Origin: an uncultured Acidobacteriota bacterium
GTDB taxonomy: Bacteria > Acidobacteriota > Vicinamibacteria > Vicinamibacterales > UBA2999
Length of the DNA stretch: 64,000 bases
Direction: 5' to 3'
NCBI GenBank assembly: GCA_963707795.1
Contig: OY970174.1
Span: 3,813,833-3,877,832, forward strand
A program made the position numbers. How positions within the stretch are numbered: position 1 is the first letter of the stretch; each line of letters opens with the position of its first letter. This document shows, piece after piece, positions 33,001 through 36,000 of this stretch.

Positions 33001-36000
33001 TAGCTGTCGCCCGTGATCATGCGCACCACCCGGCCGTCCTCCTCCACGAAGCGGACGATCTCCCCCACCGGTCCGCCGCCGGTGGGCGCGACGTAGCGGA
33101 ACTGGCCGTTGCCGATCGGCTCGAGACGGATCGGGTTGTCGAGCGTGGCGGCGTTCGGCGAGATGATGACCAGGCGCTGGTTCAGCTCGACGACGTGCGA
33201 TTCGCCACCGCGCCCGCGATAGAGCCCGGCAAAGCGAGACCAGGCCGGATCCCAGGTGGTCGGCGTCTCCGGCGGCGCCGCGGCCTTGGCCACCGCCTCC
33301 CCCACGGTGTTCATCACCTGCGTCGCCATCGCGCCGGGGTTCGCATCGTCGGCGTTGGTCAGGACGATCACGCCGACCTTGCTCTCCAGGTTCAGCAGGG
33401 TGTTGGTCTGGTAGCCGGGATAGCTGCCGCCGTGTGAGACGAACACCTTGTCGCGCTCGCGGCGGACGGCAAACCCGATCGCGTTGCCCTGGGTCCAGTT
33501 GCTTTCGAGGACGCGCACGCGATGCATCTCGCGCAGCGAACCCGTGCTGAGGATCTGGCGGCCGCCCATGCGTCCCTTGCGGAACTGCGCCGAGACGAAC
33601 TTCGCCATGTCCTCCACCGTGGACGTGATGCCGGTCGCGGCGGCGAGGCCGCGGGCGTCGATGAACGGGTTGACCGCGCGCGAACCATCGGGCATCAGGC
33701 GGCCGTAGCCAGTCGCCAGTTCGGGCACGTTGCGGTCGACGCTCGACGCGCTCATCCCGAGCGGCTTGTAGATGTGCTGCTCGACGTAATCCGCCCACGT
33801 CTGGCCGCTGACCGTCTCGATGACCTGGCCGGCGATCGCGTAGGCGAGGTTCGAGTACTTCCAGCGCACGTCGGGCGAAAACGGCGCCTGCCGCTCGGTC
33901 ATCAGCCCGCGCAGCTGCTCGCCGGTCGGAAACTCGAACGTCGTCCAGTGCGAGCCGGCTTCGCGCGGCAGGCCCGAGCTGTGCGTGAGCAACTCCTCGA
34001 TCGTGATCGGCGGATCCTCGGCCTCGGCGGACTTCACCTGGAACCACGGCAGGTAGTTCGACACCGGGTCGTCGAGCCGCAGCTTGCCCTGCTCGCGCAG
34101 CTGCATCACGGCGGTGGCGGTGAACAGCTTGCTGTGCGAGGCCATGCGAAATCTCGTGCCCGTCGTCATGGCGGTGCGGCGCCCGGTATCGGCCATCCCG
34201 AAGGCCGCGGCCCACACCAGCTCCTGGTCGGCGACCACGCCGACGACGACCCCGGGGAGATGGCGGTGGAGCATCTGGCCGTCGAGCCAGGCGGTGAAGA
34301 GGCGCCGGGCGCCCTGGACGTCGGCGTGATCGGCCACGCGCTCGCCGCGCGGCGGGGCCTGGGCGCGCAGGTCGCGCGCCGTGATGTCGATCAGCAACAG
34401 GCACAGCAGCGCGATCAGCGCGAGCCGCGATTTCGGCGTGATCATCTTCGATTCCTCCGGGCGCGCCGGCTCAGCTCGGCGGCGGGGCGATTATCGCTGA
34501 GGCCAGGACCGCGTCACAAGCCGTGGACGAGCTGCGCGCGACCCGCACGAATCGGCGATTGACAGCGGCGGCTTCGAGTCGTAAGGTGCAGGCAGATCCG
34601 TCGAACGCCGTCAGGCGTGGGGCCCGACGGATCGGCCCGATCAATCGGAGCGGCTTGCAGGCCCGGTTGGAAAGGAGGTCGCAACGATGACGGACGTAGT
34701 CGCCGGCGGTGATCCACCGGGCTCGACACGACCGCCGGAGCGGCCGGGGTGCTCGAGCACTGACGTTCCTGCGCGCAGGACTCCCTGACGCGGACCTCGA
34801 TTCGACTCGCGTCGGCTGGCTGATCGCTCACCCGATCAGCACTCTGGAGGACCAGCGTCCGATCCTGCGAATCGCGCGGGATGCCGTCACCTGCCTGGGA
34901 GTGCTCGGCGACCGTGGACCGGCGGTCTGACAATTCAACACGAGGCTCATGCACGAACGCATGCGCGAAAGAAGGGCATTCCAGATACTGGGGTGCCCTT
35001 CTTTTTTGCGGCCCGGCCGCTCGTGGCGGCGCCGATCGGCCGATCAGGTCACGGCGGCGCGGACGGCAAACCGCGGATCCTGCCATTCCCCGCTTGCGAG
35101 CACGGCGGACAGCCGGTCCACGGCGTCCCAGACATCACGGTAGCGCGTGTAGAGCGGGGAGAATCCGAAGCGGAGGATGTCCGGCGCGCGGAAATCGGCG
35201 ATCACGTGCCGGGCAGCGAGCGCCTGGACCATGGCATAGCCGCCGCGCCCGTGCGCGAACGCCACCTGGCTGCCGCGCGAATCGGCCGCGCGAGGCGTGA
35301 TCAGGTCGAGCCCGTGTCCCGCGCATCGCGCCTCCACCAGATCGATGAACAGGGCGGTCAGCGCCATGGACTTGTGCCGCAGCGCGGTGAGGCCGCCGTA
35401 CGGCTCCGCGGCCAGCACTTCGTCCACCCCGCATTCGAGGGCGGCGAGCGACAGGATCGGCGGGGTGCCGCAGAGGAATCGCCCCACGCCCGGCGCCGGC
35501 CGATACCCGGACGCGAACTCGAAGGGGGCCGCGTGTCCGAACCACCCCGAGAGCGGCTGTCGCCATTGTTCGCGATCCATCTGCGCGGTGTGGGCCGGGT
35601 GCACCCAGAGAAAGGCGGGCGCTCCGGGACCGCCGTTGAGGTACTTGTAGCCGCAACCAACAGCGAAGTCGGCCGCCTCCTCGGGCGAGTGGTCGCCGTG
35701 GAGCCGAATCGGCACGACGCCGGCGGAATGCGCCAGGTCCCACACGGTGAGCGCGCCCGCCTGCCGCGCCCGGCGCGTGAGGTCGTTCATCGCGTGCAGG
35801 CGGCCGGTGCGATAGTTGACGTGGGTCAGCAGCAGCACCGCCAGCCGATCGTCGAGGTACGCCGCCAGGTCGTCGGTTGCGGCCAGCACCAATTCGAAAC
35901 CGTGCGCGCGGGCGACGGTCTCGGCGATGTACAGGTCACTGGGAAAGCTGCTGCGCTCCGACACGATGCGGCGCCGGCGTGGGGGGCCGGCTCCGGCGAT

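Follow-up and report, generated by a model that had tools for sequence, protein, structure and literature searches.

Introduction

Genes for trans-acting small RNAs (sRNAs) of the enterobacterial type have their own sigma-70 promoter and intrinsic terminator and lie in intergenic regions that otherwise look empty. In the dual-function sRNAs, such as SgrS/SgrT, RNAIII/delta-haemolysin and SR1/SR1P, the encoded peptide is conserved across the family. A further kind of small transcript is represented by the rreB/rreR mRNAs of alpha-proteobacteria, in which an extended Shine-Dalgarno (SD) sequence with 16–17 nt of complementarity to 16S rRNA precedes a GTG-started open reading frame (ORF) for 14–18 aa (Hahn et al. 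2016, PMC5711450). Here we describe a predicted transcription unit of an uncultured soil bacterium of the Acidobacteriota, which resembles each of these systems in part. It lies on the plus strand of a 598-bp gap between kynU and a beta-lactamase-fold gene (bla), and the gap contains no ORF that can be assigned to a family. The window that we analysed, to which all coordinates refer, is a 64,000-nt stretch of contig OY970174.1.

A sequence-only reading of the window had proposed an orphan unit at this place and had left its nature open between a structured sRNA, a dual-function RNA, a small protein gene and a remnant of foreign DNA. All of the signals that it named were located in the sequence, with the order and strand that it had given (Table 1). 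In our view a plus-strand transcription unit is likely to be real here, and it is probably a gene for a small RNA or a short peptide that is either young or in decay. Regarding its nature, we tentatively favour a lineage-restricted, functional, mRNA-like small RNA of ~415 nt, the coding capacity of which would not exceed a short peptide without conservation; that the unit is transcribed, translated or regulatory we infer from the sequence features described below.

Predicted promoter, ribosome-binding site and terminator on the plus strand

The promoter at the upstream end of the unit, TTGACA-N17-TAAGGT, matches the sigma-70 consensus in all six positions of the −35 hexamer and has a spacer of 17 nt. 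It had been described as canonical, but the −10 hexamer keeps only three of the six bases of TATAAT (T1, A2 and T6) and falls below the threshold of a simple consensus scanner, which reports neither the plus-strand promoter nor the terminator. The pattern TTGACA-N16-18-TANNNT occurs only twice on both strands of the 64 kb, against 0.04 sites expected (50-fold above chance). The other site, TTGACA-N17-TAnnnT at 19406–19434 on the minus strand, ends 10 nt ahead of the ATG (19396) of a 1326-aa ORF, the mRNA of which this distance suggests to be leaderless or nearly leaderless. As this copy fronts a real gene, the organism appears to use such promoters. In the gap, both promoter hexamers are invariant in all four known copies, and three spacer positions vary. 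From here RNA polymerase would start a few bases past the −10 hexamer, at ~34590–34595, and produce an RNA of ~415 nt with a stem-loop at its 5' end.

Some 80 nt further downstream follows an extended SD sequence, GAAAGGAGGT, which ends 7 nt before an ATG and contains the AAGGAGG core, 8 nt before the same ATG, that had been recorded as a strong SD. Whereas AAGGAGG alone is found at chance frequency (2 in the window, 2.4 expected), GAAAGGAGGT can pair over 10 nt with the usual 3' tail of 16S rRNA, GATCACCTCCTTTCT (the tail is assumed here, the rRNA lying outside the window). The window has one other 10-nt anti-SD complement, which no start codon follows. The SD, the spacer and the ATG are invariant in 4/4 copies, with a spacing between ribosome-binding site and start that is proper for a short ORF. 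Ribosomes would load at this very strong SD and initiate at ATG 34687.

At the downstream end of the unit lies an intrinsic terminator, noted before as strong and rare for this genome. It is the sole textbook rho-independent terminator of the window: TTTTTT has its single occurrence on both strands of the 64 kb here, and among 29 runs of at least four T only this T6 directly follows a long perfect hairpin. Polymerase would stop at ~35005–35008. On the plus strand the hairpin consists of 18 contiguous pairs, two of them G-U; on the minus strand the two G-U pairs turn into A-C mismatches, giving a 2x2 internal loop, and the sequence that follows, UUCUUUC, is a poorer U tract. Because of the continuous pairing and the better U tract, we regard the hairpin as shaped for the plus strand. 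No substitution is present among the four copies, only one change in the length of the T run. Immediately upstream are an unpaired, AU-rich stretch, ACAAUUCAACACGAG, and a small hairpin; the folding energy predicted for the 83-nt 3' module is −38.1 kcal/mol (z = −7.3). The 3' end of the RNA would thereby be laid out like a riboregulator module, with an AU-rich unpaired stretch, a small hairpin and a terminator with a U tail. A complement of the AU-rich stretch was not found elsewhere in the window, and no seed or target was identified.

The hairpin is situated 37 nt after the stop codon of kynU and may serve both strands; as a side effect of the unit it would probably also end kynU transcripts and insulate bla, which has a promoter-like site of its own. 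Taken further, this could mean that there is no plus-strand unit at all: the hairpin would terminate kynU and nothing else, bla would have its regulatory DNA in the upstream half of the gap, and promoter and SD-ATG would be fortuitous. The short distance to kynU and the UUCUUUC on its strand would agree with such a view, as would the bla promoter-like site only 40 nt from the plus-strand −35, the chance frequency of AAGGAGG alone and the −10 hexamer with its three matches. We nevertheless hold it to be improbable. A perfect −35 with TAnnnT, a 10-nt SD with ATG and the only T6 run, all in order on one strand, are very unlikely to come together by chance, and the stem loses its two G-U pairs on the strand of kynU. 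Moreover, the next kynU relatives (73–75% at the aa level) have neither the gap nor a terminator, with only 16–173 nt to the next gene, and the 38 columns past the hairpin, viewed from kynU, are conserved too. Given the strand, order and invariance of the signals and the strand specificity of the hairpin, the gap is best read as holding a real plus-strand unit.

Conservation of the gap

Conservation of the gap in relatives had been named as a check on the proposal, and starting from kynU relatives the gap was found in three other assemblies, all from one narrow Vicinamibacterales-like clade. The comparison thus comprises four syntenic copies (window, L093, L081 and L094) from three lineages. 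L093, assembled independently, matches the window at 99.77% identity over 9.3 kb (20 mismatches, one indel) and has the same gap sequence except for one synonymous C>T at 34704, so the arrangement of frames in the gap of the window is not an assembly artefact. L081 and L094 form a sister clade, with a four-fold divergence in kynU of 0.14–0.16 from the window and 0.07 between them. The kynU-gap-bla arrangement is the same in all three relatives, and the gap, 592–598 bp long, aligns throughout.

Variation is spread unevenly over the gap (Table 1), and in the last 78 columns up to the end of the T run a single one is variable. The body varies at 10.5% of its columns compared to 18% at the four-fold sites of kynU (46/256 variable; P = 0.03). 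The 62 nt of the signals named in the sequence-only reading contain 0 substitutions and a single change in the length of the T run, whereas 10% of the columns vary over the whole gap (P ~0.01). In pairwise comparison the divergence of the gap is 5.4%, that of the pooled four-fold sites of the flanking genes 12.2% (Fisher P = 3e-4). As a separate observation, L094 differs from L081 by six substitutions within 34 nt (window 34739–34772), all of them towards G or C, which far exceeds the gap-wide divergence of 3.6% between the two; a cluster of mutations or a small patch of recombination could explain this.

Table 1. Features in and around the kynU/bla gap, in the order of the window, with the variable and indel columns counted per segment among the four copies.
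Feature	Position	Strand	Basis or remark	Variable columns	Indel columns
bla, beta-lactamase-fold gene	32982–34445	−	PF00144		
bla promoter-like site, TTGTGA-N18-GATAAT	34490–34519	−	consensus scan		
Spacer between the two promoters				6/39	0
Sigma-70-type promoter, TTGACA-N17-TAAGGT	34559–34587 (TTGACA 34559–34564, TAAGGT 34582–34587)	+	sequence	3/29, all in spacer	0
Leader				8/81	0
5'-terminal stem-loop of the predicted transcript	34595–34633	+	minimum free energy (MFE) and consensus folds; includes hairpin 34598–34630		
Translation initiation region, extended SD GAAAGGAGGT and ATG	34670–34689 (AAGGAGG 34672–34678, ATG 34687)	+	sequence		
SD to codon 17				1/69	0
ATG-started short ORF	34687–34788	+	33 aa in window and L093, 45 aa in L081 and L094		
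73-aa GTG ORF (ORF73)	34709–34930	+	+1 frame relative to the ATG ORF; unconserved		
Body				20/195	5
GACGCG/CGCGTC hairpin	34787–34813	+	sequence and fold		
GCTGATCG/CGATCAGC hairpin	34819–34840	+	sequence and fold		
3' module before the terminator, AU-rich unpaired stretch ACAAUUCAACACGAG and small hairpin (34945–34966)	34931–34966	+	fold		
Segment before the terminator	34931–34967			1/38	2
Intrinsic terminator, 18-bp stem, 3-nt loop, U run	34967–35007 (arms 34968–34984, 34988–35004; T6 35002–35007)	+	sequence and fold	0/40	1 (T-run length)
kynU	ends 35044, spans 35044–36352	−	KYNU_C and Aminotran_5		

The evidence for constraint on the gap is thus real but modest, and a number of observations weigh against a functional unit. 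Most of the weight of the 62-nt conservation signal comes from the terminator, which kynU possibly needs too. The block from the SD to codon 17 was delimited post hoc and is unremarkable by a scan statistic (P = 0.19–0.30), and the adjacent bla fragment has a four-fold divergence of only 7.8%, near the 5.4% of the gap. Body and leader vary at ~10%, frame-breaking indels are present, and in codon usage the first 22–33 codons of the short ORF resemble non-coding frames, in line with the poor codon bias ascribed to it before. Finally, the sampled lineages are three, all close to each other (≤7% nucleotide divergence), and none of the searches returned copies or homologues beyond the four syntenic ones.

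Reading frames and the search for a protein

The frame opened by the ATG differs between the sister clades in both reading frame and length (33 versus 45 aa), and only codons 1–17 (34687–34737) are common to all four copies. Between L081 and L094, codons 18–29 of this ORF show six non-synonymous and zero synonymous changes. The product of the unit would accordingly vary with the lineage, a short peptide of 33 aa here and of 45 aa in the sister clade, with a longer frame of 73–81 aa not maintained. Any function would be carried by the RNA, by its expression as such or by the short N-terminal peptide. The unit may be a dual-function or short-peptide RNA.

ORF73 had been considered a candidate for a small protein, possibly frameshifted, and the idea did not hold up. 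Compared to the window, L081 and L094 have a complex +2 indel at 34752, a 1-nt deletion at 34801, a change of TGG>TGA at 34819 in the ORF73 frame and a further one or two 1-nt deletions near 34882–34889, and no open frame is kept across the four copies on either strand. Substitutions from the window to L081 fall 3:4:3 on codon positions 1, 2 and 3 of the ORF73 frame (hand count from the alignments). The C-terminal part of ORF73 has an intermediate codon score, the best of the six frames, which lies in the 3–4% tails of both the coding and the non-coding distribution. An AF2 single-sequence model was uninformative (pLDDT 52, pTM 0.30).

Profile searches of every candidate ORF against Pfam and PHROGs, with two reconstructed fusions of 80–81 aa among the queries, gave no match, and neither did word-index searches with ORF73 and the reconstructed 81-aa protein. 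Exhaustive phmmer with ORF73 returned only two spurious eukaryotic repeat proteins. Altogether no homologue of ORF73 or of the putative protein was present among ~5.8 billion clustered or 1.84 billion representative proteins. A scan of JGI metagenomes with a degenerate pattern of SD, ATG and the first seven codons yielded four chance matches within unrelated genes, and tblastx of the gap against all loci produced compositional noise only. Beyond the four syntenic copies the searches turned up no related protein or DNA, and no intact parental gene can be recognised. We conclude that ORF73 is not a gene and should not be annotated as a protein. An ORF of 190 aa on the minus strand was also dismissed, having non-coding-like codon usage and being broken by indels.

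The main rival to a functional small RNA is a decaying orphan gene, and the data in hand cannot separate the two. Under this explanation a monocistronic gene of ~81 codons (ATG 34687 to TGA 34930) was acquired, lost its frame independently in both clades and has no present function, and its signals look intact only for lack of time to erode. With its leader, its strong SD-ATG and a distance of 37 nt from the stop codon to the terminator hairpin, the unit is laid out like a small-protein gene. The ATG frame of L081 and L094 leads directly into the ORF73 frame, which allows an 81-codon ORF to be reconstructed by combining the two clades. The ORF73 frame has the best codon score of the six, intermediate between the coding and non-coding distributions. 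The high ratio of indels to substitutions, the missing codon-position bias and the scan statistic, by which the conservation differences within the gap are not significant, point in the same direction. On the other hand, the putative protein has no intact copy or homologue in the protein collections, Pfam or PHROGs searched above, the signal motifs are free of substitutions at a level that the gap as a whole is not, and the gap evolves more slowly than the pooled four-fold sites. The first 22 codons are moreover non-coding-like in their usage, and the low confidence of the AF2 model does not speak for a protein. We judge decay somewhat unlikely, and keep a functional small RNA as the favoured reading.

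The same contrast between fixed signals and a fluid frame would also be expected of a bacterial proto-gene. Here the clade-specific junction would have provided promoter, RBS-start and terminator, which now drive translation of an unconstrained sequence; the initiation region would be fixed while length and frame of the ORF drift (33 versus 45 aa), and the 81-codon frame, one indel away, would be raw material for de novo gene birth and not a remnant. We consider both this origin and its implication for the 81-codon frame unlikely.

Finally, the 33-aa ORF and the ORF73 frame might be joined by programmed +1 frameshifting. A well-known example of a +1 frameshift is prfB. The 33-aa ORF ends with CCC UGA C (34783–34789), where a slip by +1 would give CCU, still proline, and continue in the ORF73 frame to a protein of 80 aa; AGGA is found just upstream, and the CTCCCTGAC motif is invariant in 4/4 copies. 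L081 and L094, however, read the CCCTGAC motif in frame (CTC CCT GAC) and meet a stop 10 codons later. Their ORF73 frame carries the nonsense codon and the indels, and downstream there is neither protein constraint nor a homologue, which makes this explanation highly improbable. The mRNA-like small RNA with a short peptide remains our preferred reading of the frames.

RNA structure

The hairpins listed in the sequence-only reading are all present, the GACGCG/CGCGTC hairpin one base off the position given there. In the 5'-terminal stem-loop one stem substitution changes G-C to G-U and another falls in an internal loop. No copy has a change in the stems of the two internal hairpins; a 1-nt deletion falls in the loop of the first, and substitutions lie just outside the stem of the second. 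These numbers are too small for significance.

We also asked how far the unit could be a structured non-coding RNA of ~415 nt, with a function that depends on its fold, especially on a domain at 34730–34927 closed by a 9-bp helix, and an incidental SD-ATG. The fold of the whole unit has a z of −4.4 to −4.7, which lies beyond all 84 background windows of this sequence (mean −0.28, sd 1.27) and is the most extreme of the 86 windows tested in the 64 kb; the minus strand reaches −2.7 and the unit of L081 −4.2. Without the terminator, however, z is −0.76, so the apparent excess of structure is almost entirely that of the terminator, and the value of −3.2 for the inner domain rests on boundaries that were chosen afterwards. 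The substitutions give a similarly divided picture. In an RNAalifold consensus, itself fitted to the same data, 99.6% of the cells stay paired, with one double-sided change, and 94.5% of random placements destabilise the fold more than the real changes of L081 do (P = 0.055). Placed on the MFE fold of the window, the same L081 substitutions break 12 of the 15 pairs that they hit, which equals the random expectation. Of nine changes specific to L094 and unused in the consensus, four are in paired columns and two of these break pairs (P = 0.14; three lineages only). Covariation is not demonstrable with three close lineages, and the proposal of a structured sRNA finds no significant covariation in these substitutions to lean on.

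Rfam 15 gave no match for the whole window at the gathering threshold. In a permissive scan of the gap only terminator look-alikes appeared, below threshold (ctRNA_p42d with 26.5 bits against 50, STnc420 with 24.1 against 70). Taken together, we regard a fold-dependent RNA as an improbable explanation too, on a par with the gap holding no unit at all. The thought of a CsrA sponge was given up: 14 GGA motifs were counted by eye, with ~8 expected, and these are not placed in hairpin loops.

Setting and origin of the gap

The G+C content of the window is ~70%, and the flanking proteins place it in the Acidobacteriota, near Vicinamibacterales metagenome-assembled genomes. The lower local G+C that had been attributed to the gap exists, but as a small dip only (0.63–0.70 versus 0.70–0.73 in the flanks). 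Among 80 GTDB loci with bla relatives (up to 85% at the aa level) there was no kynU nearby and no similarity to the gap, and the upstream contexts were all different. In the next kynU relatives the gene beside kynU is a non-orthologous PF00144 gene in L082 and L083, an amidohydrolase orthologue in L088 and a YCII gene in L086, and nhmmer with the gap alignment against the window and 92 loci (~1 Mb) returned the known copies only. Since the gap is absent from the next kynU relatives and the 80 bla loci, the junction and the gap are specific to one narrow clade. The junction would have arisen by rearrangement or insertion. A simple insertion of 450 nt into an ancestral kynU-bla pair proved wrong: the PF00144 genes of L082 and L083 are not orthologues and L088 has an amidohydrolase in this place, which argues for a larger rearrangement.

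In L088 the orthologue of the window's amidohydrolase (1494–2822, 85.5% at the aa level) directly follows kynU (74.5%) in the same direction. The amidohydrolase of the window (31627–32985, plus strand) lies on the other strand than kynU, beyond bla, with which its end overlaps by 4 nt (32982–32985). This placement indicates a local rearrangement or inversion in the clade of the window.

Regarding the suggestion of a foreign DNA remnant, the confinement of the kynU/bla junction with its gap to one narrow clade agrees with it, but blastn of the gap against plasmids and phages gave no match, no donor of the sequence was found and the G+C content is near that of the genome. The window and ~1 Mb of related loci yielded no second copy of the unit. 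Terminal inverted or direct repeats of note are absent from the gap, which makes a mobile element unlikely.

Upstream, the promoter-like site of bla is arranged back to back with the promoter of the unit and belongs to its context, outside the unit; both of its hexamers are invariant in 4/4 copies. A 12-nt stretch in its −35 region (34505–34516, minus-strand reading TGACGCGGTCCT) recurs with one mismatch on the plus strand at 34786–34797 (TGACGCGGACCT), probably by chance. On the other side of the gap, the kynU frame of the window is split at 36189–36190 by one extra base (CATAGC versus CA-AGC) at a site that is not a homopolymer. In L093 kynU is intact with 433 aa, as it is in L081 and L094, and the frameshift of the window reflects either an error of assembly or a pseudogene of very recent origin. 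The neighbouring DsrE-family gene (36392–36973, minus strand) encodes 194 aa in the window and L093 and 111 aa in L081 (585–920), where ~249 nt are missing. An ORF of 2288 aa lies at 37116–43982 on the plus strand, and its L093 counterpart of equal length matches the Pfam families DUF748, TamB, POTRA and Omp85. These matches identify it as a single polypeptide in which a TamB-like protein is fused to an Omp85/TamA-like barrel.

Comparison with known systems

If transcribed, the unit would be an unannotated small RNA or short-peptide gene of one genus-level clade of Vicinamibacterales-like Acidobacteriota. In a limited literature search we found no paper on sRNAs of Acidobacteria with Rho-independent terminators. 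The locus illustrates that intrinsic terminators and near-consensus promoters do occur in 70%-GC genomes of this sort, if rarely, and with its fixed expression signals around a frame-fluid ORF it offers a small natural test case for the birth or decay of orphan genes.

With the genes of classical sRNAs the unit shares the stand-alone organisation from promoter to terminator in a gene-free gap, the narrow phylogenetic range, the U-tailed terminal hairpin that follows an AU-rich unpaired stretch and a small hairpin, and the absence of a conserved long ORF. It differs in its length, ~415 nt being long for this class, in its very strong SD-ATG and in having no identified seed or target and no Rfam family. 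Like the dual-function sRNAs it combines a translatable short ORF with RNA outside this ORF, the 3' module, that looks constrained. In contrast to these, only the 17 N-terminal codons are shared and the remainder changes frame between sister clades, and a base-pairing role is putative.

The rreB/rreR mRNAs (PMC5711450) are similar to the unit in being small and monocistronic with a tiny ORF and in that they could pair with the 16S 3' end over an unusual length, which points to strong binding of the 30S subunit. The complementarity of the unit amounts to 10 nt (11 with wobble) against the assumed 16S tail, its start codon is ATG, its ORF encodes 33–45 aa on ~415 nt of RNA and its host is an acidobacterium; no sequence similarity exists. 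It therefore falls short of the rreB type, which is marked by at least 16 nt of complementarity and a short ORF of ~14–18 codons.

Resemblance to ORFan genes and young pseudogenes is given by the restriction to a single lineage, the lack of homologues, the atypical codon usage and the frame-breaking indels and nonsense codon between close relatives. What sets the unit apart is that all of its copies keep their expression signals fully intact and that no parental gene in intact form is known, so that the status of a pseudogene is not demonstrable. As in bidirectional terminators between convergent genes, one hairpin lies between convergent units, A-rich on one side and T-rich on the other, but this hairpin is strongly asymmetric, with 18 pairs and T6 on the plus strand versus an internal loop and UUCUUUC on the minus strand. 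As far as can be tested, the unit lacks the defining features of both the dual-function sRNAs and rreB/rreR and belongs to no curated family, and it is best filed as a lineage-specific addition to the general class of orphan small transcription units.

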